Source of the DNA: an uncultured Rhodospirillaceae bacterium
GTDB taxonomy: Bacteria; Pseudomonadota; Alphaproteobacteria; UBA8366; GCA-2717185
Reading direction: 5' to 3'
NCBI GenBank assembly: GCA_964474755.1
Contig: CAYYUG010000008.1
Location: forward strand, 13,360 to 77,359
Length of the DNA: 64,000 bases
The stretch's first letter is position 1; the number at the start of each line of letters is the position of its first letter. Positions 1 to 63,546 of this stretch are shown here, piece after piece. The position numbers were made by a program, and so were the translations under genes. The notes below the pieces were generated by a model that searched no databases, had not been told where the DNA came from, and saw only the letters and a program-made list of their open reading frames with translations.

Positions 1-217
1 CCCTACGGCACCTGATCAGCGGTCAGCCGAAAAACGAACCGATTGATCATGCCGATACTAAAAAGCCATTCACCCAGACCAATTACTATTGCTGCGACCT
101 CCATTGCTTTACCTGGCCGCATAGAGGCCTGCGCTTTACTGGTCCGTGAGGTGCGCTGAGAAATAGCAGAAATCATAACCTATCGCTAAAGTGCATCTAA
201 CAGAGAGGGAAAAGACG

Positions 218-1762
218 ATGCCCGCGACAAAAGACGCCCCGAATATTCTGGTGATACAGCTCGACCAGATGACGCCCGGCGCACTGCCTCCCTACGGGCA
301 CCCGCTGGTAAAGGCTCCGCATATCGCTGGCCTGGCGGCCGATGGGGTGGTTTTCGAAAACGCTTACTGTAATTTTCCGCTCTGCGTGCCGTCGCGTATG
401 TCGATGCTGGCGGGCCGATACACAAGTGCGATCAGACAATGGGACAACGCGGTCGAACTTCCAGCTGCCGTCCCCACATTAGCACACTACCTTCGTTCAG
501 CAGACTATCACACCGTACTGTGCGGCAAGATGCATTTCATCGGGCCCGATCAGATGCACGGCTTTAACGAACGCATTACCACAGACATATACCCAGCTAA
601 TTTCGCTTGGACGCCAGATTGGGTCATCGGCGAGCGCTATCGGCCAACCGGTATCAACCCACGGGCCGTCATTGAGGCAGGGGTCTGCGCGCGGTCGCTA
701 CAAATCGATTTTGACGACGAAGTCGAACATGCAGGTATCCAGAAAATCTACGACCTGGCCCGCTTCAACAAGGGTTCGCCCTTTCTTCTCTGGGTATCCT
801 TCACACATCCCCATTCGCCCTTCGTCACAACTCAAAAATACTGGGATTTATACGACCACGACGAAATCGATATGCCAAAGGTCGACCCGATCTCAATCGA
901 AGACCAGGATGCGATGAGCCGCATGCTGCATTACGGGCATGCGCAGGATTTACTTACTATCACCGACGACCATGTCCGCAACGCACGGCACGCCTATTAC
1001 GGAATGACTTCCTACATGGACGACAAGGTCGGCCGCATCCTGGCCGCACTAGGCGAAATGGATTTAGCGGAAAATACCGTCGTCGTGCTAACCGCCGATC
1101 ATGGCGAAATGCTCGGCGAGCGAGGCGGCTGGTTTAAACAGTATTTCTACGAGCCGTCAATCGGCGTCCCACTGATTGTCCGCGCTCCAGGCCGCTTCAA
1201 GCCGGGCCGTGTCTCTGAACTAGTTTCATTGGTCGATCTGCTTCCGACCTTCATGAATATCGCCTCCAACGGCGACGCCCCGGAGCCGGCTTCGCCGCTC
1301 GACGGTCATTCCTTGACCAGGCTTCTTGGTGACGGCGACCCCGACTGGGACAACAAGGTCATCTCCGAATATACCGGTGAGGGCGTCTCTGCGCCCTGTC
1401 GCATGGTTCGGCGCGACCATTACAAATACATCTACACGCATGGGCAACCGCCACTGCTTTATGATCTACGTTTTGATCCTCTGGAGCTCGAAAACCTATC
1501 GGGCCATCCAGACGTATCCGATGTCGAGGCGTCGCTAGCGATGGAACTTATGGACAATTACGACCCAGAGGTGGTTAACAAAGCCTGCATTCAAAGCCAA
1601 AAAGAGCGTCGTTTCATCACCGAAGCGACAGATGGCAGACCATCCTGGGCCTATGTCGCCCGCATTGGCGATGACCTGCGTTATGTCCGCAACGCAAGCG
1701 CGACTGCCGCAAAGGGTGCGGCCCGCTATCCTTTCATCGAGCCCACACCCTTCGAGCGCTAA
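218..1762 (+). CDS. betC: Choline-sulfatase-type sulfatase (formylglycine-dependent, alkaline phosphatase superfamily)
   Basis: ORF 191..1762. An internal ATG at 218 lies 7 nt after GAGAGGGA. The sulfatase signature C-x-P-S-R is present (FPLCVPSRMSMLAGRY). Blocks GKMHFIGPDQMHGF, VSFTHPHSPF, LTADHGEMLGERG and YDLRFDPLELENL resemble BetC choline sulfatases. Confidence 0.8.
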   Translation: MPATKDAPNILVIQLDQMTPGALPPYGHPLVKAPHIAGLAADGVVFENAYCNFPLCVPSRMSMLAGRYTSAIRQWDNAVELPAAVPTLAHYLRSADYHTVLCGKMHFIGPDQMHGFNERITTDIYPANFAWTPDWVIGERYRPTGINPRAVIEAGVCARSLQIDFDDEVEHAGIQKIYDLARFNKGSPFLLWVSFTHPHSPFVTTQKYWDLYDHDEIDMPKVDPISIEDQDAMSRMLHYGHAQDLLTITDDHVRNARHAYYGMTSYMDDKVGRILAALGEMDLAENTVVVLTADHGEMLGERGGWFKQYFYEPSIGVPLIVRAPGRFKPGRVSELVSLVDLLPTFMNIASNGDAPEPASPLDGHSLTRLLGDGDPDWDNKVISEYTGEGVSAPCRMVRRDHYKYIYTHGQPPLLYDLRFDPLELENLSGHPDVSDVEASLAMELMDNYDPEVVNKACIQSQKERRFITEATDGRPSWAYVARIGDDLRYVRNASATAAKGAARYPFIEPTPFER

Positions 1763-9561: not shown

Positions 9562-10383
9562 CTACGTTTCGTCCGCGAAACGGGCGTCGCGCCATGCAAT
9601 AGCCGCCTTCACCCCCTGCTCCTTGCGGATGCGGGCGAATTCACGTTTTTCCCAGGATGGCGTCGCGTTGATCTCAACATCGATATCAAGACTGGTCAGC
9701 AGCGCTTGACGCAGTCCCATGATTTCATAACTCCGGTTGATCGCCTGCTTGGTCAGTTGTACGGACACCGCCGCGGATTGCACCATCTTGCGTGCCATGC
9801 TTTTAGCCTTGAGCAACGCTTCATCTGACGGCACGACGCAATTTACGATTCCCATTCGCAGCGCGTCCTCTGCGCTGACCCGATCATCTCCGGTGAGCAG
9901 CAATTCCTTGGCTTGTTTAGGGCCAGTGATCCAAGGCAGCAACATGGCGACGATACCTGTGCCGAAACGCACCTCCGGCTCACCAAACATTGTGCCCTTG
10001 GCCGCTACCGTAATGTCGCAGGCGAGCGCCAGTTCAAACGCGCCGGCGAGGCAATACCCCTGCGCCACGGCGATGGTCGGTTTCGGGCAGTCCCAGAATT
10101 TGATGATGAAATCGAACTGCAACGCCATTTGCGAACGTATCTTGTCGACGCCGTCGAGATTGCGCTCCGCCGAGGCCTTAAGATCGAAGCCGGCGGAAAA
10201 TGCGCGGCCAGCACCCTGGACAATGACGGCTTTGACGCCGTCATCTGTAGAGAAGCGGTCCATCGCCGACATGCATTCGTACATCATCTCGTTGTTAAAC
10301 GCGTTTAATGCCTTGGGTCGGTTGAAAGTCAAATAACCTATGCCGTTCTTGACTTCCGTCTGGATAAATTTTTCGGTCATCAC
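9562..10383 (-). CDS. Enoyl-CoA hydratase/isomerase (crotonase) family protein
   Basis: 273-aa ORF with crotonase motifs LTFNRPKALNAFN and VIVQGAGRAFSAGFDLK. Its start overlaps the upstream LLM stop by 4 nt. It ends with a TAG stop. Confidence 0.85.
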   Translation of the reverse strand: MMTEKFIQTEVKNGIGYLTFNRPKALNAFNNEMMYECMSAMDRFSTDDGVKAVIVQGAGRAFSAGFDLKASAERNLDGVDKIRSQMALQFDFIIKFWDCPKPTIAVAQGYCLAGAFELALACDITVAAKGTMFGEPEVRFGTGIVAMLLPWITGPKQAKELLLTGDDRVSAEDALRMGIVNCVVPSDEALLKAKSMARKMVQSAAVSVQLTKQAINRSYEIMGLRQALLTSLDIDVEINATPSWEKREFARIRKEQGVKAAIAWRDARFADET

Positions 10384-11399
10384 GCCGCCCCAATTTCGAA
10401 CTCGTTCGCCAGCAATTTGTAGGAATGCTTGCGTGCATCGAGGCCGTGCGTCCAGGTCAACACAGAAATCTCTTCGACTCCTAACTGTTCCACAAGTTTC
10501 CGCAACTGTCTGCCAACGACGTCAGGTGTGCCGACAAGCGCGGTCTCGCGCAACTGATCTAACCGCGCCTGTTCCGCCGGGGTGTAGGCCTGTCCTGCCG
10601 CCATCTCTGGCGATTCAATCGGCTGCAGCTGGCCTTGATCCCTCAGTAGTCGCGAGCGGGCGCGCGACATGAACTGAAAGTGCGCCTCTTCATCGGTCTC
10701 GGCCAGGAGCGCCCAAACGCAGATTGCGGTCTCAGGTTCCGGATGGCGTTGGCTCGGCTGATAGTTTTCGCGATAAAGCGCCAGAGCCTGTGCGCAGGCC
10801 CGCCCCTCAGTAATGAAATGAGCGAAGCAATAGGGAATACCGAAATGTGCTGCGACCTGTGCGCCGTAATCGGACGTCCCCAACATCCACATCTCCGGAA
10901 CAGTTTCTCCGGTCGGGAAGGCTCGGATCGTGCCAAACGGATGTCCTTCGGGCAGCGCGTCGTCCGAAATCCAGGCTAGCAAATCACGCACTTGCGCCGG
11001 GAATTGCTCCGCCGCCTTCGCCGCATTGGGGTTAAGGGCGTAGGCTGTCCGCCCGTCCGAGCCCGGCGCGCGGCCGAGCCCTAGATCGATGCGTCCCGGC
11101 GCAATCGCGTCCAATACACGGAACTGTTCAGCCACCTTCAACGCTGAGTAGTGCGGCAGCATGACCCCCGCACTGCCGATGCGGATGCGTTTAGTTGTGG
11201 CTGCAATTGCCGACATGACGATCTCAGGTGCACTGCCCGCGATGGTGTCATGATTATGGTGCTCGGCGACCCAGAAGCGACTATAGCCGAGGTCCTCGCA
11301 GTATTTTGCCAGAGCGATGGTCTCACGGATCGATTCCGCCTGCGCGCGGCCAGCGATGGCGACGGATTGGTCTAGCACGGAGAGGCGGCGAACGGTCAT
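10380..11399 (-). CDS. Luciferase-like (LLM class) flavin-dependent oxidoreductase, YhbW/MsnO8-like
   Basis: 339-aa ORF with N-terminus LSVLDQSVAIAGRAQAESIRETIALAKYCEDLGYSRFWVAEHHN and GRIDLGLGRAPG, typical of this LLM subgroup. Confidence 0.8.
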   Translation of the reverse strand: MTVRRLSVLDQSVAIAGRAQAESIRETIALAKYCEDLGYSRFWVAEHHNHDTIAGSAPEIVMSAIAATTKRIRIGSAGVMLPHYSALKVAEQFRVLDAIAPGRIDLGLGRAPGSDGRTAYALNPNAAKAAEQFPAQVRDLLAWISDDALPEGHPFGTIRAFPTGETVPEMWMLGTSDYGAQVAAHFGIPYCFAHFITEGRACAQALALYRENYQPSQRHPEPETAICVWALLAETDEEAHFQFMSRARSRLLRDQGQLQPIESPEMAAGQAYTPAEQARLDQLRETALVGTPDVVGRQLRKLVEQLGVEEISVLTWTHGLDARKHSYKLLANEFEIGAA

Positions 11400-12902: not shown

Positions 12903-13724
12903 ATGGCATCACCGCTGCATAGGGTGGACTGCAGTAGTTCAGCCGCTGACATCGTCCCCATCCTTGAACGCGATGGGGCCGTCATCGTCGAAAAAATGCT
13001 CGCGCCCAACTTGCTGACACGCCTCAATCATGATCTCGACAGCATAGTTGCGGAAACGCCGCCGGGTGTGCGACACCCGACTGAGGACGATATGGTCTCT
13101 TTCTATGGCAAAGCGACCGTGCGGGCCGATGGGTTGCCGGGAAAATCGAACGCGTTCCTCGACGTCATGCAGCATCCGCTGCTCTTGGGTGTCGCGGATC
13201 ATTTCCTGTTACCAAATTGTGACGACTACCTACTCAACACCGGCCAGCTTATCGAGATCGGCCCAGGCGAGAACGACCAGCGGCTGCATCGTGACGAGGG
13301 CGTGTGGCGGCATCTGAGCGATCCAAAGCCGGATCTACAAATCGAGGCACTGTTCGCACTGTCCGATTTCACCGAAGAGAATGGCGCAACGCGGGTCGCA
13401 CCCGGGAGCCATCGCTGGCATAAAGCTCGCGAAGCGAAAGCAAATGAAATCGTGCAGGCAGAGATGTCAGCAGGATGCGCCTTGTTTTATCTCGGCTCGA
13501 CAATCCATGGCGGTGGAGCCAATCGAACGAAGTCCATACGGCGGCGGGGCATGTTCATCGGCTACGTGCTCGGTTGGCTGCGCACCGAGGAAAATATGTT
13601 CCTCTCCGTGCCGCTGGAGAAAGTCCGCACAGCGCCGCGCCGCGTGCAGGAGCTTCTGGGCTACAAGGCGGTGCGAGCCCTGGGTGTTGTCGATGTCGGC
13701 GACCCAATGGCACTCCTCGACTGA
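12903..13724 (+). CDS. Phytanoyl-CoA dioxygenase (PhyH) family Fe(II)/2-oxoglutarate oxygenase
   Basis: 273-aa ORF with an H-x-D metal motif in QRLHRDEGVW, a distal His in LGSTIHGGGANRT and PhyH-like length. Confidence 0.75.
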   Translation: MASPLHRVDCSSSAADIVPILERDGAVIVEKMLAPNLLTRLNHDLDSIVAETPPGVRHPTEDDMVSFYGKATVRADGLPGKSNAFLDVMQHPLLLGVADHFLLPNCDDYLLNTGQLIEIGPGENDQRLHRDEGVWRHLSDPKPDLQIEALFALSDFTEENGATRVAPGSHRWHKAREAKANEIVQAEMSAGCALFYLGSTIHGGGANRTKSIRRRGMFIGYVLGWLRTEENMFLSVPLEKVRTAPRRVQELLGYKAVRALGVVDVGDPMALLD

Positions 13725-13761: not shown

Positions 13762-13791
13762 ATCACCCTCACTTCACTGAACGAGGGTGAT
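13762..13791 (+). promoter_or_regulatory. Perfect 9-bp stem hairpin whose 3' arm contains the Shine-Dalgarno-like GAGGGTGA of the downstream gene
   Basis: ATCACCCTC (13762..13770) and GAGGGTGAT (13783..13791) are exact reverse complements separated by 12 nt. The ATG at 13794 follows 2 nt later. A second hairpin, CAGACA-N12-TGTCTG, lies at 13727..13750. Confidence 0.5.
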
Positions 13792-13793
13792 AA

Positions 13794-14312
13794 ATGCCAT
13801 ACGTTCCCCCGACCGGACCACCCAGCCGGATGACTAGCCAGCGTGTACGCGCCCATTGCCCAGAACTGCTCGACGGGCTGAACAGTTTCTACGAGCGGAT
13901 ATGGCGCAGCACCCGCGTCGATGCAGGCATTAAAGAGCTAATTCGACTGCGCTGTGCGACGGTTAATAACTGCGGTTATTGACTAAACTTTCGCTACGCT
14001 GCGGGTCAGCGTGCCGGAATGACGGAAGAGAAGCTGAACCAAGTCCATGACCCGGAGAGCCGCATTTTTACGGAACGGGAACGGGCGGTACTACAATTCG
14101 CTGGCGCTATGGCGAAAAATGATACCGAGAATGCCGACGAACTGTTTGCCGAGATGCGCCGCTTTTTTGACGATGCACAACTGGTCGAAATCGGTTTCGT
14201 TGTAACGACGCTGCACGGCATGAACCAGTTCAACAACATGTTCGGGATCGAACCAGAAGAACAGCCCATGGTCAGCTATACGGGCACCGACCGGCCAGAA
14301 GCGGCTGAATAG
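13794..14312 (+). CDS. Carboxymuconolactone decarboxylase (CMD)/AhpD-family protein with in-frame UGA at 13980..13982; candidate selenoprotein (C-G-Y-U motif), otherwise a nonsense-disrupted pseudogene
   Basis: ORFs 13794..13982 and 14019..14312 share one frame, and no other stop lies between them. The joined sequence ...LIRLRCATVNNCGY[UGA]LNFRYAAGQRAGMTEEKL... places the UGA where the family has the second Cys of CxxC. A SECIS-like hairpin follows. Confidence 0.6.
13989..14019 (+). promoter_or_regulatory. SECIS-like stem-loop immediately 3' of the in-frame UGA
   Basis: UUUCGCUACGCUG (13989..14001) pairs with CAGCGUGCCGGAA (14007..14019). That is 10 Watson-Crick pairs, 2 G-U pairs and 1 C/C mismatch. 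The apical loop is CGGGU (14002..14006). The stem starts 7 nt after the UGA, and the loop begins 20 nt after it. Confidence 0.55.
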
Positions 14313-14350: not shown

Positions 14351-15187
14351 TTGGCCCCAACATTTCAAAGCGCGCGCCTCGACATCGCCAACACAGGCGT
14401 CGCGACCTTTACCTTAAATCGACCTGAAGCGTTGAATGCCCTTTCGCCCGACCTAAAAGAAGACTTTCAGACGATGGTCGATTTCGTCGACGGCAATGCG
14501 GACATCAAGGCCTTGATCCTGACCGGCGAAGGCCGCGCCTTTTGCGCCGGTGGCGACGTAAAGGGAATGACAAACCGACTGGCCGATGGTCCGGGCGCTT
14601 CGCGCCAGGGTATTCTTGAAGTGCATGGCTGGCTGCAGCGTCTGCATAATATCGACTGCGCCGTCATCGCAGCAGTCGATGGTTTAGCCTTCGGCGGTGG
14701 TTTCAGTCTGGCGCTGGTCGCGGACTTCGTCTTCGCGTCGCCAAAAGCAAAATTCTGCTCCGTCTTTTCACGCATTGGACTAATGCCAGATATGGCGCTG
14801 GCCTACACACTGCCAAGGGTCGTTGGCGCCGCGATGGCGAAAGACCTGATGTTCACCGGCCGCAGCATTTCCGCCAGAGAAGCGAAAGAATTGGGCATTG
14901 TCCATTCGATCATTGAGGAAGGCGATGTGTTGACCGCAGCCCAGGACTATGCCGCGCGCATCGCCATAGGGCCAAAGACTGCGGTCGCCCTGTCAAAGCG
15001 CCTGGTGAACAAGACCTTTCAAAGCAATTACAACGACATCGCCGATGCCGAGGCTGACGGTCAAACCCTTCTATTCAACAGCGATTTCGCACAGGAAGCT
15101 GTCCGGCGTTTTGTTGAAAAGGAACCACCGCTATACAATTGGGACACGATGAATAAGAACGCAGACTGCCAAGACGATCAAATTTAG
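14351..15187 (+). CDS. Enoyl-CoA hydratase/isomerase (crotonase) family protein
   Basis: 278-aa ORF with a TTG start 5 nt after GGAGGA. Crotonase motifs are FTLNRPEALNAL and LILTGEGRAFCAGGDVK. Confidence 0.8.
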   Translation: MAPTFQSARLDIANTGVATFTLNRPEALNALSPDLKEDFQTMVDFVDGNADIKALILTGEGRAFCAGGDVKGMTNRLADGPGASRQGILEVHGWLQRLHNIDCAVIAAVDGLAFGGGFSLALVADFVFASPKAKFCSVFSRIGLMPDMALAYTLPRVVGAAMAKDLMFTGRSISAREAKELGIVHSIIEEGDVLTAAQDYAARIAIGPKTAVALSKRLVNKTFQSNYNDIADAEADGQTLLFNSDFAQEAVRRFVEKEPPLYNWDTMNKNADCQDDQI

Positions 15188-55621: not shown

Positions 55622-56650
55622 ATGAGGCTTTTGTTGATTGGCTTAATCCTTCTTGCAGTTGTCGCTGCCGGCGGTGCTGCACTGATGGTCAAGCGCCTGT
55701 TGGACGCGCAGATTGAGCAACAAGCCCAGAATGCTGCAGAGATAAAAACGGTTGAGATTAAGGGTGTATATGTGCTTGTTGCAGACGAACGAATATCCAT
55801 CGGTACCACTCTCACAAAGGGTAAGCTCCGATGGCAAAAATGGCCGGATGATGCTTTAGAAACAATTTTTCTTTCTTCAGAAAAGCGCGACACAAATCTT
55901 ATGCAACAATTCGTTGGCAAAATAACACGGCAAAGTATAGCAGAAGGAACGCCAATAACTGACGATATGGTATTTAGTCGCGGGAAAGCTGGCTTCCTTT
56001 CCGGCATACTTGACAAAGGCTTCCGGGCTGTTTCTATAAAAGTCGATTTACAATCAGGTGTCGGCGGCTTCGTGCTGCCAGGCGACCGGGTGGATATATT
56101 AGTTACATTTGATGCGCGACAATTGACGCAGGGACTGTCTCGTTCGAACAGCGGCAATTATGACGAAGGTGTCGAAGAAAATGGCGGGCCAATTGATATT
56201 GGACCAGTCAAATACAGTACCGAAACAATTTTGCAGGGCATCCGCGTACTAGGCATTGACCAGCAGTTCAAAGAAGTCAAAGGCGAGGCCTCGGTTGCAA
56301 AATCCACAACCTTGGAAGTTTCACCAAAGCAAGCCGAAATTTTGGCAGTGGCACGTGCTATGGGAAAACTTAGTTTAACCTTACGTAGCAAGGAAAATGA
56401 TAACTCCGAATTGACTACTAAGTCTCTCACTACGGACGTTGACTTCAGCCCGACACTGCAAAATATTGTTGCCCGCATAGCTGAGGCTAAACAAAGAAAG
56501 AAGCGAGCGGATTACAAAAAAACAAAAGACCTTCCTCACTCTAAAGCCAAACCGGTTGAGATAGCACCCAAACCGGTTGAGCCAATATTAAAAGAAGTTA
56601 GAGTGATTCGTGGCGATGTTCAGTCAATTCAAAAGTTTCCTTCTAAATGA
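55622..56650 (+). CDS. cpaB: Flp pilus assembly protein CpaB (RcpC-like, SAF domain)
   Basis: 342-aa ORF with an N-terminal membrane anchor MRLLLIGLILLAVVAAGGAALMV. It contains a SAF-like region and a Lys/Pro-rich C-terminus. It is the first gene of the co-directional tad cluster. Confidence 0.8.
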   Translation: MRLLLIGLILLAVVAAGGAALMVKRLLDAQIEQQAQNAAEIKTVEIKGVYVLVADERISIGTTLTKGKLRWQKWPDDALETIFLSSEKRDTNLMQQFVGKITRQSIAEGTPITDDMVFSRGKAGFLSGILDKGFRAVSIKVDLQSGVGGFVLPGDRVDILVTFDARQLTQGLSRSNSGNYDEGVEENGGPIDIGPVKYSTETILQGIRVLGIDQQFKEVKGEASVAKSTTLEVSPKQAEILAVARAMGKLSLTLRSKENDNSELTTKSLTTDVDFSPTLQNIVARIAEAKQRKKRADYKKTKDLPHSKAKPVEIAPKPVEPILKEVRVIRGDVQSIQKFPSK

Positions 56651-58131
56651 ACATGTTCAAAATTTTTTGTTTTCTGTTCAGGTTCCGAAAGCAAATCATT
56701 ACGTGGCCAATTTTTGGCTTAACGTTTGCGGTATTAGTTTCCGGCGTCGTCTATGCGCAGAATAGTTCGACGACGATAGTTCCGGAGCCTTTAACATCAG
56801 TAGAAAAAAAATCACCATCAAAGGACATCCCCACGCTCAACGCCGAAACAATTTCTATTCCCCTTAATAAAGCTCATTTTATTCAACTTCTAGAGCCAAT
56901 AAGGGATGTTATAATCGCGAATCCAAATATCGCTGACGTGCTTGTTAAAACGCCGAACGACCTCTACCTAATCGGGAAAGCACTCGGAAGAACTAACGTA
57001 TTCCTACTGGGAGCTGACGGACAAATAACAAGACATATTGTTATTGATGTCGAAAGCGATATCATTGCTGCTCGCAAAGCAATTAAGTCACTATTGCCAG
57101 ATGCGAATGTCGATGTAAAAGGTATTGGTGATAGCTTAGTTCTTACAGGAACAGTTCGTTCCGCTAACGAATCCGTGGATGCCGCTACGGTTGCGCGACG
57201 GTTTGTCGAGCAAGATAGCAACGTCATTAACATGTTGCGTATCTTAAAGGACCTTCAAGTACTCCTTCAAGTCCGCGTAGCAGAAATGCAACGAACGACA
57301 ATTAAAAATTTATCAGTGAGTGCTTCATTTAATAAGATCCTTAGAAACAGGGCCCTTAATGCTTTAACGACCGCAATTGTTCCTTCAGGGTCTATTCCCG
57401 CTATAACTGGGACAGTAACTTTCAACAAATTAGGGTTACAGGCTGCGACTTTCTCAGCACTTGAGCGCCAAGGCCTCATTAAGACTCTGGCAGAGCCAGC
57501 ATTGACGGCAATTTCAGGTGAAACGGCGAATTTTTTAGCCGGTGGTGAGATCCCAACGCCGTCGGGTGTCGATAATCAAGGCCGATTAATCATAGATTTC
57601 CGAGAATTTGGTGTCGCCCTTAGTTTTACACCAACAGTATTAGATCATGATCAAATTAATCTTAGGATATCAACAGAAGTTAGCCGCCAGTCTAACGAAA
57701 ATAGATTAGTTCTCCCATTTGGAACCGTTAATCAATCAGTCGACGTCCTCGGCCTTTCCATCAGGCGAGCGCAAAGTACAGTAAATTTGACTAGCGGAAC
57801 CAGCATGATGATTGCTGGAATGCTTCAAAGAGACGAAGTCAACCAAACAGATGGAACCCCTTGGCTGAAGGACGTTCCTATTCTGGGGGCACTTTTCAGA
57901 AGTCAAGCATTCCAAAACAACGAAACCGAACTTGTTGTTTTGGTTACTCCCTATATCGTTCGACCAGTAAAACCAACTAACAAACTTAACCTGCCCACTG
58001 ACGGTTTTGCTTCTGCCAGCGACACCGATCTTTATCTGTTAGGCCGGTTATATAAGCAATATGGTCGTAATAAGAGCGGGCGACAGAAAATTCCTTTAAT
58101 TCAAGGACCCGTCGGGTATGTTTTAAAATGA
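56647..58131 (+). CDS. cpaC: Tad secretin CpaC/RcpA (type II/III secretion system secretin family)
   Basis: 494-aa ORF with a 4-nt overlap with cpaB. It has a signal/anchor segment. The secretin core is LAEPALTAISGETANFLAGGEIP ... VPILGALFRS ... ELVVLVTPYIV. Confidence 0.9.
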   Translation: MNMFKIFCFLFRFRKQIITWPIFGLTFAVLVSGVVYAQNSSTTIVPEPLTSVEKKSPSKDIPTLNAETISIPLNKAHFIQLLEPIRDVIIANPNIADVLVKTPNDLYLIGKALGRTNVFLLGADGQITRHIVIDVESDIIAARKAIKSLLPDANVDVKGIGDSLVLTGTVRSANESVDAATVARRFVEQDSNVINMLRILKDLQVLLQVRVAEMQRTTIKNLSVSASFNKILRNRALNALTTAIVPSGSIPAITGTVTFNKLGLQAATFSALERQGLIKTLAEPALTAISGETANFLAGGEIPTPSGVDNQGRLIIDFREFGVALSFTPTVLDHDQINLRISTEVSRQSNENRLVLPFGTVNQSVDVLGLSIRRAQSTVNLTSGTSMMIAGMLQRDEVNQTDGTPWLKDVPILGALFRSQAFQNNETELVVLVTPYIVRPVKPTNKLNLPTDGFASASDTDLYLLGRLYKQYGRNKSGRQKIPLIQGPVGYVLK

Positions 58132-58811
58132 CCTTGTTTTATCAAAAATATCTCTGCATCAATCACGTATTGCAGCTGTTAGCCGTAGCTTGTGTAGCAG
58201 GAATTTGTGCTGCCTGTGTTAGTTCAAATAATGAGGCTAAACCTATTCAACACTACCCCATAAATTCTGAACTTGTAACTTTTACAGTTGGCTTGAGATT
58301 TGATAGCCAGGAAAACTTAGCTTTTGCTCACGACGAACAAACATTCAAAAAGTTTTTAAGGGAATTTGCGCGACGTGGACGCAGTCCACTTACTGTGTCG
58401 ACAACTCCTCAGTCAAAACTTGAAAATGAGAAATCAGTGATCATGCGCCTGGTGGCCGAAGGAGTTGACCGCCAGTCTATTATACTAAAACAAGGAGCAG
58501 CGCCTAAAACAGATGCATTTGGTGTGATGTTTAGCTTCCGTGGTTATATGGTAGATGTACCAATTTGTGAGAATTGGCTTGAAGCAAAGAATCATAATCA
58601 AACAAATTTACCGCATGCTAATTACGGATGTTCTTATCAACGCAATATCGGCTTAATGTTGGCTGATCCAGGTGACTTAGTAGCACCAAAAGGCATATCC
58701 GGCACCGATGCACGCAGAATGGATGAAGTTATTCGGGTCTTCAGACGAGGAGAAGCCGCAGGCGCTGCTGTTCCAAAGGATGAAAAATCTACGTTCGCGG
58801 ATCCGACCTAG
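58128..58811 (+). CDS. cpaD: Pilus assembly protein CpaD-like (probable lipoprotein)
   Basis: 227-aa ORF overlapping cpaC by 4 nt. It has an N-terminal hydrophobic segment with Cys residues (LLAVACVAGICAACVSSNN). Position and size match CpaD. The C-terminal ANYGCSYQRNIGLMLADPGDL block is CpaD-like. Confidence 0.65.
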   Translation: MTLFYQKYLCINHVLQLLAVACVAGICAACVSSNNEAKPIQHYPINSELVTFTVGLRFDSQENLAFAHDEQTFKKFLREFARRGRSPLTVSTTPQSKLENEKSVIMRLVAEGVDRQSIILKQGAAPKTDAFGVMFSFRGYMVDVPICENWLEAKNHNQTNLPHANYGCSYQRNIGLMLADPGDLVAPKGISGTDARRMDEVIRVFRRGEAAGAAVPKDEKSTFADPT

Positions 58812-58851
58812 TAACAATAAGTTCTCGGCAGATAAATTAACGGCTAGAACC

Positions 58852-60045
58852 ATGACCCTCCGGATTTCCATAGCGGCATTTTCTATAGAAAGTGAAACCG
58901 TCAACGTCGTAGAAGCACTCCGGAACCAACGGCAGTATTCACGTTGTGAAATTATTAATCAGGAAGGCGGTATAGGGGCGGCAAGAAATTTTCTTGCAGA
59001 AAATGAAACTCCAAACTTGCTAATTATCGAAACTGATTTAGTTGGAACCCCTTTATTCGAAGAATTGGAATCACTTGCAAGTGTGTTTGATCCGAACAGT
59101 CGTTTAATGCTCATTGGACAAGAGAATGACATTCAATTGTACCGCCAGCTTATAGAAATGGGTATTAGTGAGTATCTCTGCGGTCCTATAAACGAAGATC
59201 AGTTAAAAAACAGTATCAACGAGTTATATGCGGACCCTGAAGCCATTGATCTCGGTCGCGTAATCGCTTGCGTTGGAGCCAGAGGAGGTGCCGGCAGTAG
59301 TACGGTAGCTTCTAATCTTGCCTACACTTTAGGCCAGCAATATTTGAACGAGGTAATATTAGTCGACCTTGACCTTTGTTTTGGTACAGCTGCGTTAGCA
59401 CTCAATCTACAACAACGGCAGAGTATTTCCGATGCATTGGCGCAGCCGAACCGTCTTGACGATGTACTGATAGAAAGGTTCATGCTGAAGTATAATGAAT
59501 ACCTTTCTGTCGTGGCCGCACCGACTGTCCTGGGTAGTGACTATGAAATACCGTTAAATGCATTCGAAATTTTTCTCGAACTTGTGCGCAAAATGTCACC
59601 TTTCATTGTTCTCGATGTTCCCCATCAATGGTCACCCTGGGTGAGTGAAGTTCTTTTGGATGCGAATGAGGTTTTGGTGGTTGCCTATCCCGACCTGGCT
59701 AACCTTCGTGATGCACAAGCAATTTTTGAAAGGCTGATGGAGAAACGAAATGTCGACGAACCAACACGTTTAGTGCTTAATCGCGTTGGTATGGCCAAGG
59801 GATCTGAGGTTGGTCCAAAAGATTTTGAGGGCGCCACCAAAGTAGAGCCGACATTAAACATTCCATTTGATCCCAAACTTTTCAGCATAGCTCTAAATAA
59901 TGGCCAATCCATTGCAGAAGTTAGCAAGCGAGCAAAGTCGACTAAATTGTTTAGTGAACTTGCAACGATTGTGAGTGGTAAAATGAAGGCTAAGCAACAA
60001 CGTTCAGGGCGAGGGCTTATTAACTTTATGAAATCTAAAAAATGA
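58852..60045 (+). CDS. cpaE: CpaE/TadZ pilus assembly protein (receiver-like N-domain + ParA/MinD-type ATPase fold)
   Basis: ORF 58708..60045, with a likely start at MTLRISIAAFS (58852) just after cpaD. The deviant Walker A is VGARGGAGSSTVASNLAY. Confidence 0.8.
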   Translation: MTLRISIAAFSIESETVNVVEALRNQRQYSRCEIINQEGGIGAARNFLAENETPNLLIIETDLVGTPLFEELESLASVFDPNSRLMLIGQENDIQLYRQLIEMGISEYLCGPINEDQLKNSINELYADPEAIDLGRVIACVGARGGAGSSTVASNLAYTLGQQYLNEVILVDLDLCFGTAALALNLQQRQSISDALAQPNRLDDVLIERFMLKYNEYLSVVAAPTVLGSDYEIPLNAFEIFLELVRKMSPFIVLDVPHQWSPWVSEVLLDANEVLVVAYPDLANLRDAQAIFERLMEKRNVDEPTRLVLNRVGMAKGSEVGPKDFEGATKVEPTLNIPFDPKLFSIALNNGQSIAEVSKRAKSTKLFSELATIVSGKMKAKQQRSGRGLINFMKSKK

Positions 60046-61586
60046 CTACTTTTGGACGTAGAGTTAAAACACCGGAAACAAAGGACTCAACCTTACTGGC
60101 AGAGCCCGTTGACGACACGCCTACTGCAGATAGTCCGGTCACCTTAGTGACTTCCCCGGAATATTCTGACCCACAGCCAACAGTCCAGCCAGAAAAAATC
60201 AATGAGCCAAAATCTGCGACAGTACCCGTGCTTGATATGGCTAAACTCGAGGGCGGGGAACAGGAAACGCAAAAAAGTGTGGATAGTGAACCACTACCGA
60301 GGCAAGGGCCGCTTGATGAAAAGCTACAAGAAATAAAAGTTAGTGTTTTTAATTACCTAATTGAAGCGGTAGACCTTTCGCAACTCGCGTCTCTCGAACA
60401 TTCAGAGGTGCGCGAAGAAATTAGTGACATTGCTAGTGAAATAATTGGCATGCGAGGCTTTGTACTTAGTGCACAAGAGCAGCAACACGTAATAGAAGAT
60501 ATTTGCAACGATGTACTGGGTCTCGGACCTTTGGAACCACTACTGGCCCGTGATGATATCACTGATATCATGGTGAATGGTCCGGATAAAGTCTATATCG
60601 AAACCAAGGGAAAACTGGAGCTTACCGACGTTAAGTTCCGCGATGCTGCACAACTCATGAACGTATGTCAGCGTATTGTTACAGCTGTTGGGCGCCGCGT
60701 TGATGAAGCTAGCCCAATCTGTGATGCGCGCTTGCTTGATGGATCACGAGTGAATGTCATAGCAAACCCGTTGTCAGTTGATGGGGCGACACTCACAATT
60801 CGAAAATTCCAGAAGGAAAAATTAACACTCGATAACCTAATAGACTTCAAAAGCGTATCGCCAGAATGCGCACAGGTCTTAGAGGTCATCGGGGGTTGCC
60901 GGCTAAACATCTTAGTTTCGGGTGGAACGGGATCGGGTAAGACCACGTTACTTAATTGTCTCACAAACTTTATCGAGGACGGCGAGCGTGTTGTCACTTG
61001 TGAGGATGCCGCAGAACTACAACTGAAAAACCCACACGTCGTGCGTTTAGAAACTCGTCCGGCAAACCTCGAAGGCGCAGGCGAGGTAACAATGCGCGAT
61101 CTCGTACGGAATTGCCTTCGAATGCGCCCGGAACGCATTATCGTTGGAGAGGTCCGCGGCTCCGAAGCATTTGACCTTTTACAAGCGATGAACACTGGTC
61201 ACGACGGCTCGATGGGTACCGTGCACGCTAACAACCCACGTGAAGGAATCTCTCGTATCGAAAACATGATCGCTATGGGTGGCTTCAACCTTCCCGCAAA
61301 GGCAATGAGGGAACAAATTGCTTCAGCTATCAACGTCGTAGTGCAAGCCGCGCGTTTGCGTGACGGCTCACGAAAAATTACTCACGTGACCGAGGTAATC
61401 GGCATGGAAGGTGATGTAGTAACCATGCAAGACCTCTTTGTCTTTGAGATAGAGGGCGAGGACGCGGATGGAAACATTATCGGCCAACATAAGGCAACAG
61501 GCCTTCGTCCCACATTTTGGGATAAGGCTCGATATTTTGGTCTCGAAGAAAAATTAGCCAACGCATTAGAAGCTTCTAATGTTTGA
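60042..61586 (+). CDS. cpaF: CpaF/TadA family secretion ATPase
   Basis: 514-aa ORF with a 4-nt overlap with cpaE. Walker A is SGGTGSGKTTLLN, the Asp box is VTCEDAAEL, Walker B is RIIVGEVRG and the His box is AMNTGHDGSMGTVHAN. Confidence 0.92.
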   Translation: MTTFGRRVKTPETKDSTLLAEPVDDTPTADSPVTLVTSPEYSDPQPTVQPEKINEPKSATVPVLDMAKLEGGEQETQKSVDSEPLPRQGPLDEKLQEIKVSVFNYLIEAVDLSQLASLEHSEVREEISDIASEIIGMRGFVLSAQEQQHVIEDICNDVLGLGPLEPLLARDDITDIMVNGPDKVYIETKGKLELTDVKFRDAAQLMNVCQRIVTAVGRRVDEASPICDARLLDGSRVNVIANPLSVDGATLTIRKFQKEKLTLDNLIDFKSVSPECAQVLEVIGGCRLNILVSGGTGSGKTTLLNCLTNFIEDGERVVTCEDAAELQLKNPHVVRLETRPANLEGAGEVTMRDLVRNCLRMRPERIIVGEVRGSEAFDLLQAMNTGHDGSMGTVHANNPREGISRIENMIAMGGFNLPAKAMREQIASAINVVVQAARLRDGSRKITHVTEVIGMEGDVVTMQDLFVFEIEGEDADGNIIGQHKATGLRPTFWDKARYFGLEEKLANALEASNV

Positions 61587-62586
61587 CTCGTTAGCAATGA
61601 CAGAAGCCGGAACACTAATCGCCGTTACGGTGCTAATGATTATAATCATGTTTACGTTCATCGGCGGCCTCGGTTACGTGATCATATTGCGCCCAAGATT
61701 GCGTTTACGGCGTCGAATGACCGAATTTAATTTAGTTGCGAGCGGTGCAGGTAAAAAAAACAAAGCCGCTGCCAACCCACGCCAGAGTCAAATACAACAA
61801 AAACTAAAGGAACTTGAAGATAAAGCTGATAAGAAAAAGCAAAGGAACGAGATTCGAACAGAGTTACTCCAGGCAGGTCTTAGTATTAGTGTTCGACAAT
61901 ATTTTATACTAACAGGTATTGCTGGTCTCGGAGTAGGCGGAATAGCGATGCTATTCAATTTTAGCATAGTTATAGCCATCCCATTGGCGCTTATAGGGAC
62001 TTTTGGCTTACCAAAACTTTTCATTCGCTTAATGGCTAAATCTCGTAGAAAAAAGTTCACCCAAAATTTCGCGAACGCAGTCGATATTATGGTTCGTGGT
62101 GTTAAATCGGGACTACCGGTAAGCGAGTGTTTAACAATTATAGGCCGTGAATCTCCGGAGCCAGTTGGTGAAATTGTTCGTATCTTAGTTGAAGGCCAGA
62201 AAATTGGAATTGGCATGGAGGACCTGTTGGCGAGAGGTCTGGAAAGAATGCCTACCTCCGAATTCAAGTTTTTTACCATCGTATTGCTGATTCAACAGCA
62301 AACTGGGGGGAACCTAGCAGAAACACTGGAAGGTCTCTCTACCGTTCTTCGTGAACGAAAAAAACTCAAAGACAAGGCAAAAGCACTTTCCAGCGAAGCA
62401 AAATCATCAGCTGGAATTATCGGTTCCCTTCCATTTCTAGTCGGGGGCTTAGTCTGGCTTCTTAACCCCGACTACATCGGTTTACTATTCACCGAACAGG
62501 CCGGCAATATCGCGTTAATTGGAGGCCTATGCTGGATGGGAATAGGTGTCCTAGTTATGTCAAAAATGATCAATTTTGATATCTAA
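61579..62586 (+). CDS. tadB: Type II secretion system F family protein TadB
   Basis: 335-aa ORF overlapping cpaF by 8 nt. It has an N-terminal TM segment, a cytoplasmic T2SSF domain (FANAVDIMVRGVKSGLPVSECL) and C-terminal TM helices. Confidence 0.85.
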   Translation: MFDSLAMTEAGTLIAVTVLMIIIMFTFIGGLGYVIILRPRLRLRRRMTEFNLVASGAGKKNKAAANPRQSQIQQKLKELEDKADKKKQRNEIRTELLQAGLSISVRQYFILTGIAGLGVGGIAMLFNFSIVIAIPLALIGTFGLPKLFIRLMAKSRRKKFTQNFANAVDIMVRGVKSGLPVSECLTIIGRESPEPVGEIVRILVEGQKIGIGMEDLLARGLERMPTSEFKFFTIVLLIQQQTGGNLAETLEGLSTVLRERKKLKDKAKALSSEAKSSAGIIGSLPFLVGGLVWLLNPDYIGLLFTEQAGNIALIGGLCWMGIGVLVMSKMINFDI

Positions 62587-62589
62587 ACT

Positions 62590-63546
62590 ATGTCTACCCT
62601 TTTTGAATCCGAAACTATCATCCTCTTACTTAGCGCTATAGTTGCCTTCGCGTCAGTCATGGCATTTGTATTACCGTTTATAAAACGAAACAAAGGTGAC
62701 GCCCGCCGGCGAGAAATTGCCGAACGGCGAAATGAACTCAGTCGTGAACAACGCGAAGAACTGGTGCGCAAGCGCTCCCGTGAACGTCCACTAGCGCGCG
62801 TAAATATGATGAAGCAGTTGCTGGAACGGTTTAACCTATCCAGGCTCGCAGCCTCGCCAGAGTTACGCCGTAAGTTAATGATCGCCGGCTATAGACAGCA
62901 GTCCGCTGTTTTAACCTTCATATTCCTGCGTTTCGGGCTAGCACTTGGTTTCCTGGTTTTGGCAATTCTATTTTTTTTGTTGGATAAAGATTCCGAACTA
63001 ACCGGTATTGTTCGATCCGGTATTGTATTTTTTGCAGGGTTAGTCGGTTTCTATCTACCCGCTCTCTTGGTCAAAAGTATAACACAGAAACGACAGGATG
63101 AAATGCGGCTAGCATTCCCTGATGCGGTTGACCTGCTGGTAATTTGTGTTCAAGCAGGCCTCTCTATCGAGGCAGCCTTTGCTCGAGTAACGGAGGAAAT
63201 CTCAAGTACAAGCGAAGCACTTTCACAGGAAATTAGTTTGACGGCGGCAGAATTGGCTTTCCTAGGAGATAGGCACAAGGCCTACGCAAACTTCGCCGAA
63301 CGCACTGGGTTGGAAGGTGCAAAATCCTTGGGTACGGCGCTTTCACAAGCGGATAAATATGGGACACCTGTGGGCACTGCGCTCAAAGTACTTTCCGAAG
63401 AAAGCCGAAATGAGCGGATGTCGAGGGCTGAAACAAAAGCAGCAGGTTTACCAGCTCAGCTTACTGTTCCAATGATTTTATTTTTTCTGCCAGTTCTTTT
63501 CATAGTGATCATTGGTCCTGCTGTCCTACAATTCCTGGTTTCTTAG
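62590..63546 (+). CDS. tadC: Type II secretion system F family protein TadC
   Basis: 318-aa ORF with a T2SSF domain (LAFPDAVDLLVICVQAGLSIEAAF). Membrane topology is similar to TadB. Confidence 0.85.
   Translation: MSTLFESETIILLLSAIVAFASVMAFVLPFIKRNKGDARRREIAERRNELSREQREELVRKRSRERPLARVNMMKQLLERFNLSRLAASPELRRKLMIAGYRQQSAVLTFIFLRFGLALGFLVLAILFFLLDKDSELTGIVRSGIVFFAGLVGFYLPALLVKSITQKRQDEMRLAFPDAVDLLVICVQAGLSIEAAFARVTEEISSTSEALSQEISLTAAELAFLGDRHKAYANFAERTGLEGAKSLGTALSQADKYGTPVGTALKVLSEESRNERMSRAETKAAGLPAQLTVPMILFFLPVLFIVIIGPAVLQFLVS

Follow-up and report, generated by a model that had tools for sequence, protein, structure and literature searches.

The window analysed here, a 64-kb stretch of DNA, contains two short ORFs that lie in a common frame between the genes for a dioxygenase and an enoyl-CoA hydratase/isomerase (Table 1). 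From the sequence and the ORF listing, a 62-aa ORF occupies 13794..13982, where it ends in TGA (13980..13982), and a 97-aa ORF occupies 14019..14312. Translation of 13794..14312 gave 172 sense codons with this TGA as the sole internal stop and a terminal TAG at 14310..14312, reproducing the single interrupted frame that a first-pass annotation of this DNA had described. The same annotation had assigned the joined product to the carboxymuconolactone decarboxylase (CMD)/AhpD type. This assignment was confirmed when Cys was written at the UGA: the Pfam CMD profile PF02627 matched the joined product with 39.7 bits (gathering score 23; E = 4.9e-10) over profile positions 1-82 of 84, the match spanning the UGA, and homologues of solved structure also aligned straight across this codon. 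The two small ORFs are almost certainly a single 172-codon gene for an AhpD/CMD-type redox protein.

Table 1. Features of the UGA-interrupted CMD/AhpD-like gene and its flanking genes (window coordinates)
Feature	Position	Strand	Remarks
PhyH-family dioxygenase gene	12903..13724	+	69 nt upstream; Pfam PhyH E = 2.4e-29
Shine-Dalgarno-like GAGGG	13783..13787	+	6 nt upstream of ATG 13794; read from sequence
Selenoprotein CDS (predicted)	13794..14312	+	172 codons including Sec63; CMD/AhpD-like domain
Cys60 codon TGC	13971..13973	+	First residue of C-x-x-U; invariant in orthologues
In-frame UGA, predicted Sec63 codon	13980..13982	+	TGA in 45/45 loci; second-Cys column
Bacterial SECIS-type hairpin	13989..14019	+	Centroid fold, RNAalifold, covariation
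Lower stem	13989..13993 / 14015..14019	+	Below C/C mismatch 13994/14014
Upper stem	13995..14001 / 14007..14013	+	7 bp
Apical loop CGGGU	14002..14006	+	Starts 20 nt after UGA
Met75 codon, gene callers' start of 97-aa ORF	14019..14021	+	No real start
Enoyl-CoA hydratase/isomerase (ECH) gene	14351..15187	+	38 nt downstream; Pfam ECH_1 E = 1.8e-54

The best NCBIfam match of the joined product was NF053654, a 'YciW-related (seleno)protein' model (E = 1.9e-21), with further AhpD-type selenoprotein models next in rank. No NCBIfam selenoprotein model reached its curated cut-off with the joined protein, the scores being 76.6 bits against a cut-off of 310 for NF053654, 31.4 against 81.8 for TIGR01926, 29.9 against 110 for NF041047 and 27.6 against 175 for NF041238. 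The general AhpD domain model, TIGR00778 (ahpD_dom), scored 31.1 bits and exceeded its cut-off of 27.8.

Comparison with solved structures located the UGA within the active site. The best matches, PA0269 (2o4d, 2ijc, 7xw1) and Atu0492 (2gmy), covered residues 40-155 with E = 5e-14, and NGCAYCVNMH of PA0269 aligned with NNCGY-U-LNFR, which places the UGA at the second Cys of CxxC. P0033, the closest full-length homologue with Cys, aligned over 142 residues at 38% identity, and its NQCPSCLAVRF fell on NNCGY-U-LNFRY. Both CAYC of PA0269 and CPSC of P0033 therefore agree with the earlier placement of the UGA at the second redox Cys. The active-site motif here reads C60-G-Y-U63-L-N-F-R. The CxxCxxxH motif is absent as such, its second Cys being the predicted Sec and its His being Arg in all orthologues. 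As the nearest Cys homologues, P0033 and P0042, carry this Arg too, the change from His to Arg is a trait of the subfamily. Cys60, which falls on the first Cys of CxxC in both PA0269 and P0033, is invariant among the orthologues, as is an extra Cys nine residues before the Sec position.

Conservation of the UGA and translation on both sides of it

A search of 5.8 billion proteins produced 17 close homologues with 60-93% identity, all of which are C-terminal fragments of about 97 aa. This indicated that gene callers split the gene at the same place everywhere. A set of 45 related loci (numbered with the prefix L) was assembled from exact-protein look-ups, a scan in which each species was represented by one genome (12 MAGs, with the labels Rhodospirillaceae, Rickettsiales, Alphaproteobacteria, Gammaproteobacteria and Pseudomonadota) and a scan of metagenome contigs (18 loci). 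These loci amount to 23-27 distinct DNA versions with 58-98% amino-acid identity, recovered from alphaproteobacterial and gammaproteobacterial MAGs of marine and sponge origin. TGA was present at the homologous codon in every one of the 45 loci and a Cys codon in none. When 1.84 billion cluster representatives were searched with HMMER, using the 109 residues downstream of the UGA as query, the matches with at least 54% identity were all short fragments that start at or just past the UGA, and full-length proteins containing the Cys appeared only at 41% identity or below. No Cys-codon orthologue was found in any collection searched, whether by the 5.8-billion-protein, species-genome, metagenome or cluster-representative searches.

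At least five different gene neighbourhoods occur across the related loci. PhyH and ECH genes flank the gene in the window and in L007, and the ECH neighbour is present throughout L007-L013. PhyH and an FMN dehydrogenase lie downstream in L001, whereas L004 and L014 have an FAD monooxygenase (FAD_binding_3) downstream. In L015 the gene has an adenosine deaminase-like gene on one side and a dienelactone hydrolase on the other, and in L006 it lies between divergent and convergent neighbours. These differences indicate independent genomic settings rather than copies of one fragment.

The pattern of substitution among 27 distinct versions was examined on either side of the UGA. The pN/pS ratio was 0.19 over the 48 codons upstream and 0.23 over codons 13-93 downstream, with pS at about 0.72 outside the hairpin codons, such that synonymous sites are near saturation. 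Ratios of about 0.2 on both sides at this level of divergence imply that both halves are translated and constrained. Within the 12 codons that carry the hairpin pS was halved, to 0.33, a drop that is expected where an RNA constraint overlies the coding constraint. Variation in the two codons that separate the UGA from the stem is synonymous and confined to their third positions (Leu as CTA, CTT or CTG; Asn as AAC or AAT), which is indicative of in-frame translation immediately downstream of the UGA.

Codon +13 after the UGA, which is Met75 in the window, is GTG in L006. It is ATT (Ile) in both L020 and L035, and there the frame offers no canonical start until 36-43 codons downstream of the UGA. 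The second ORF thus cannot be an independent gene in these two loci. No Shine-Dalgarno-like motif was found upstream of codon +13 in any locus; purine-rich motifs of this type precede the N-terminal ATG in nearly all orthologues.

Three further observations concern individual loci. In L020 and L035 the C-terminal half is probably absent from, or mis-started in, the annotations. In L019 (about 10001..10650; a Rhodospirillaceae MAG) the usual stop is absent and the frame extends for some 45 residues of low-complexity sequence. In L017 the N-terminal part of the orthologue, at 28..160 and near the contig start, is out of register (…WRPKSTHRPELL…), pointing to a frameshift or to misassembly at the end of the contig.

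The hairpin downstream of the UGA

The stem pairs 13989..14001 with 14007..14019 through 10 Watson-Crick pairs and 2 G-U pairs, interrupted by one C/C mismatch. Its geometry is exactly that drawn in the first-pass annotation: it equals the centroid structure of the region and the per-pair table agrees. The energy is about -13.2 to -13.5 kcal/mol, and for the window sequence taken singly this stability does not exceed that of shuffled sequence (z = 0.43; 132 of 200 shuffles at least as stable). As energy did not discriminate the hairpin from shuffled sequence, we used covariation as evidence instead, and it is the conserved UGA together with covariation in 23 distinct homologous sequences that lifts the hairpin above chance.

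In an ungapped alignment of these 23 sequences the 12 proposed pairs were formed in 98.6% of cells. Three pairs have undergone compensatory double changes without unpaired intermediates, namely alignment columns 41:69 (U-A in 13 sequences, A-U in 10), 48:62 (U-A in 16, C-G in 7) and 51:59 (C-G in 18, U-A in 5). Neither the pairing nor the covariation score was reached in any of 500 column shuffles, pairing fell to 27-51% when the 3' arm was displaced by 1-3 nt, and RNAalifold returned an identical helix with no structure supplied. Moreover, the covariation joins synonymous changes on one arm to amino-acid changes on the other (TAC/TAT with CGT/CAT; GCT/GCC with CAG/CGG; TTT/TAT, encoding Phe/Tyr, with GGA/GGT), a pattern that would be difficult to account for without selection for pairing. 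The loop G at 14003, which occupies the third position of an Ala codon, does not vary. The first-pass annotation had named retention of the UGA and compensatory stem changes in relatives as a check on its reading; the UGA is retained down to about 58% identity across the 45 loci, and the compensatory changes are present among the 23 distinct hairpin sequences.

An Rfam scan of the window gave no family match; to our knowledge, Rfam holds no general bacterial SECIS model. The hairpin was also compared with the published bSECIS model, which describes a loop of 3-9 nt with G in its first two positions, an upper stem of 4-16 bp, a distance of 16-37 nt from UGA to loop and an MFE of -7.5 kcal/mol or lower (PMC13188914). 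The element in the window lies within all of these limits, with a 5-nt loop that has G at position 2 followed by another G, an upper stem of 7 bp, 19 nt between UGA and loop, and an energy of -13.2 kcal/mol. In having a hairpin inside the coding sequence 3' of the UGA, with a small G-containing apical loop at the consensus distance, it resembles the SECIS element of Escherichia coli fdhF (PMC13188914), and this likeness extends to a lower stem that must be melted by the translating ribosome. It differs from the fdhF-type element in having no sequence similarity to it.

Selenocysteine and other readings of the UGA

Taken together, the conserved UGA, its position on the Cys column, the covarying hairpin and selection on both halves of the gene support the candidate selenoprotein proposed in the first-pass annotation. 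We predict, with a probability of roughly 0.9, that UGA 13980..13982 encodes selenocysteine and that the hairpin is a functional SECIS element; the remaining tenth reflects Sec machinery that neither the window nor 422 kb of related loci revealed. ARAGORN detected no tRNA-Sec in the 64-kb window or in 23 related loci, and tblastn with E. coli SelA, SelB and SelD queries (approximate sequences) found no match in the 422 kb of related DNA. Absence from the window and these 422 kb says little about whole genomes. In some alphaproteobacteria selC lies within selB (PMC8124441). A protein database search with SelA had only enterobacterial proteins among the matches listed.

Under the predicted mechanism, translation would begin at ATG 13794 and, at UGA 13980..13982, the hairpin at 13989..14019 would act as a bacterial SECIS element that recruits SelB-GTP-Sec-tRNA(Sec). 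Sec would be inserted and translation would run on to TAG 14310..14312. Comparison with Cys-containing homologues points to Sec as residue 63, where it would form, together with Cys60, a C-x-x-U redox centre at the CxxC position of AhpD-type proteins. The product would then be a 172-residue CMD/AhpD-like thiol-selenol oxidoreductase. We infer its redox chemistry and substrate, and the activity is most likely a peroxidase or disulfide-reductase type of cycle that passes through a selenenylsulfide.

A nonsense pseudogene, in which a change from TGY to TGA has inactivated a CMD gene and the hairpin is a coincidence, would be in keeping with the non-significant stability of the single-sequence hairpin (z = 0.43) and with the lack of visible Sec machinery in the window and the 422 kb of related loci. 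Such a history would not, however, preserve the TGA in 45 of 45 loci down to 58% identity, in different genomic contexts and in two proteobacterial classes, and the divergence of the loci excludes copies of one recent pseudogene. There are also no frameshifts or further stops, pN/pS remains at about 0.2 on both sides with synonymous sites near saturation, the hairpin covaries, and none of the collections searched holds an orthologue with a Cys codon. The conserved TGA, the covarying hairpin and purifying selection on both halves thus uphold the earlier argument against a pseudogene, and we consider the chance of one to be negligible. A division into two separate small proteins of 62 and 97 aa, forming a split CMD domain and with the hairpin serving translational coupling or mRNA stability, draws on the constancy of the 62 + 97 geometry across loci and on the presence of ATG or GTG at codon +13 in most orthologues. 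This arrangement is very improbable, because in L020 and L035 this codon is ATT and a canonical start follows only 23-30 codons later, the codon lacks an upstream Shine-Dalgarno-like motif, the codons directly after the UGA vary only synonymously, as is the signature of translation, and the interruption coincides exactly with the catalytic Cys column within the active-site motif.

Selenium-free programmed read-through would give a full-length protein with no Sec, the hairpin promoting decoding of the UGA by Cys-tRNA(Sec) or by a suppressor or near-cognate tRNA (for Trp, Cys, Gly or Arg). The comparative data prove in-frame read-through and a functional hairpin but in themselves fit residues other than Sec at position 63, and the Sec machinery was not observed in the window or the 422 kb of related loci. 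Against this stand the position of the UGA on the redox Cys column, which is the classic Sec/Cys pattern of AhpD-like CxxU families (PMC1088965, PMC2398784), and the fit of the hairpin to a SelB-type bSECIS model, including the conserved loop G. Furthermore, if Cys were the intended residue, TGY would be expected in some of the 27 diverged versions and none has it. We therefore regard read-through of this type as improbable and selenocysteine as the preferred reading of the UGA.

There was no sign of a general reassignment of UGA. As the first-pass annotation had stated for neighbouring genes, TGA is an ordinary stop: of the 61 long stop-to-stop ORFs in the window, about half (28) terminate with it, among them the four genes that lie upstream on the same strand (hydantoinase, GMC, lactonase and PhyH). 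Neither codon-usage scoring of every in-frame TGA nor a motif scan revealed a further convincing case of a UGA-interrupted gene in the window; the codon-usage score did not separate real from spurious frames. When the scan for C..U and U..C motifs was applied to the window and the related loci, it detected only this family, a paralogue in L018 and L032, and a ferredoxin-like ORF in L024.

L018 (a Rhodospirillaceae MAG) and L032 (an independent metagenome contig) carry a 77%-identical orthologous locus. Directly downstream of the orthologue in each is a second CMD paralogue (6402..6941 in L018, from 2089 in L032), about 30% identical, in which TGA again occupies the second-Cys column of CxxC (…RLNSCSY-U-LGSL…) and is followed on its 3' side by a strong hairpin of -22.6 kcal/mol. 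The two form a tandem pair of candidate selenoprotein genes and provide some indirect support for Sec usage; the second paralogue is absent from the window. In L024, a thioredoxin-like [2Fe-2S] ferredoxin-like ORF at 349..705 has a single in-frame TGA (…ALESSI-U-DCGLKV…CLGKCAGGPNL…). This ORF has weak family matches, no orthologue among the related loci and no convincing hairpin, and could be a selenoprotein, a pseudogene or a sequencing error.

Relationship to known families and genomic context

In 2005 the Sargasso Sea metagenome yielded 27 sequences of AhpD-like (COG2128) CxxU proteins, which were recognized there as a new selenoprotein family (PMC1088965), and in the GOS data 'AhpD-like 1', at 299 sequences, ranked fourth in abundance among selenoprotein families (PMC2398784). 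Later reviews list the AhpD-like family alongside CMD-like and other AhpD-related selenoproteins (PMC9312934, PMC13188914). The gene in the window has the two attributes by which this class is recognized in the literature, a CMD-type domain (from Pfam) and a predicted CxxU motif (C60-G-Y-U63). It shares with the AhpD-like family (COG2128/YciW, TIGR01926) the CMD/AhpD fold, C-x-x-U, a 3' SECIS hairpin and an origin in marine bacteria, as well as a history of routine mis-annotation as truncated ORFs (PMC1088965, PMC2398784, PMC9312934). It differs in scoring far below the TIGR01926 and NF053654 cut-offs, in having Arg for His and in the extra invariant Cys before the Sec. A further difference is that AhpD-like 1 has many Cys homologues, whereas no Cys orthologue above about 41% identity was found here. 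We conclude that the gene is predicted to work like the AhpD-like CxxU selenoproteins, the comparison with the AhpD-like 1 set being by its published description. Because it misses the NCBIfam cut-offs and has Arg in place of His, we file it as a member or branch of a known kind, homologous to the curated families but outside each of them.

The active-site stretch also aligns with that of the CMD proteins of the PA0269/Atu0492 type (2o4d, 2ijc, 7xw1, 2gmy) over residues 40-155. Those proteins differ in having Cys rather than Sec and, four residues past the second Cys, His rather than Arg, and they are without the N-terminal extension of about 40 residues, with a conserved HCPELL motif, that is found here. 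Mycobacterium tuberculosis AhpD is similar in belonging to the CMD Pfam superfamily and in having its CxxC-type redox motif on the corresponding helix. True AhpD, which reduces AhpC, is the larger of the two proteins and depends on a Cys-Cys-His-Glu relay. In the gene described here the relay His is Arg, and an ahpC neighbour is absent from every locus examined for neighbours.

These features may define a Sec-only CMD subfamily, with Arg for the catalytic His and a third invariant Cys, which is confined to marine and sponge-associated Alpha- and Gammaproteobacteria, falls outside the curated selenoprotein models and recurs beside oxygenase genes. Its signature would be R-C-A-[TS]-[VI]-N-x-C-x-Y-U-L-N-[FY]-R-Y-A-A-G. 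We put this proposal forward tentatively, at somewhat less than even odds. If true, the position of a Sec-only subfamily beside PhyH and FAD monooxygenase genes would suggest a catalytic role that differs from the classical peroxide reduction of AhpD. A literature search returned nothing specific on selenoproteins in sponge symbionts.

In the public records examined the gene is filed as a 97-aa hypothetical protein, sometimes accompanied by the 62-aa ORF. Being filed as a fragment and scoring below the NCBIfam cut-offs, the family escapes the count in selenoproteome surveys built on annotated proteins. The practical value of our analysis is thus a correction of annotation, which adds a well-supported and apparently Sec-only branch to the AhpD-like selenoproteins; the alignment of 23 SECIS sequences also provides a clean example of covariation. 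Existing knowledge of Sec decoding and of AhpD-type chemistry is unchanged, and this is a kind of selenoprotein that is already familiar from ocean data and would not surprise a specialist.

Within the window, no promoter-like site and no terminator-like site on the + strand was found between the PhyH, CMD and ECH genes, and these three genes are possibly co-transcribed. Oxygenase genes recur beside the CMD gene, as PhyH in the window and L001 and as an FAD_binding_3 monooxygenase in L004 and L014. Finally, a Tad/Flp pilus cluster (RcpC/CpaB, secretin, AAA_31 ATPase, T2SSE ATPase and two T2SSF genes) is located at 55622..63546 of the window. Its GC content is 44-46%, as compared to 52-59% in the rest of the window, and its GC3 is 0.38-0.44, as compared to 0.53-0.69 for the genes upstream of about 54.5 kb. 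This cluster is probably a compositionally foreign island that was acquired horizontally.
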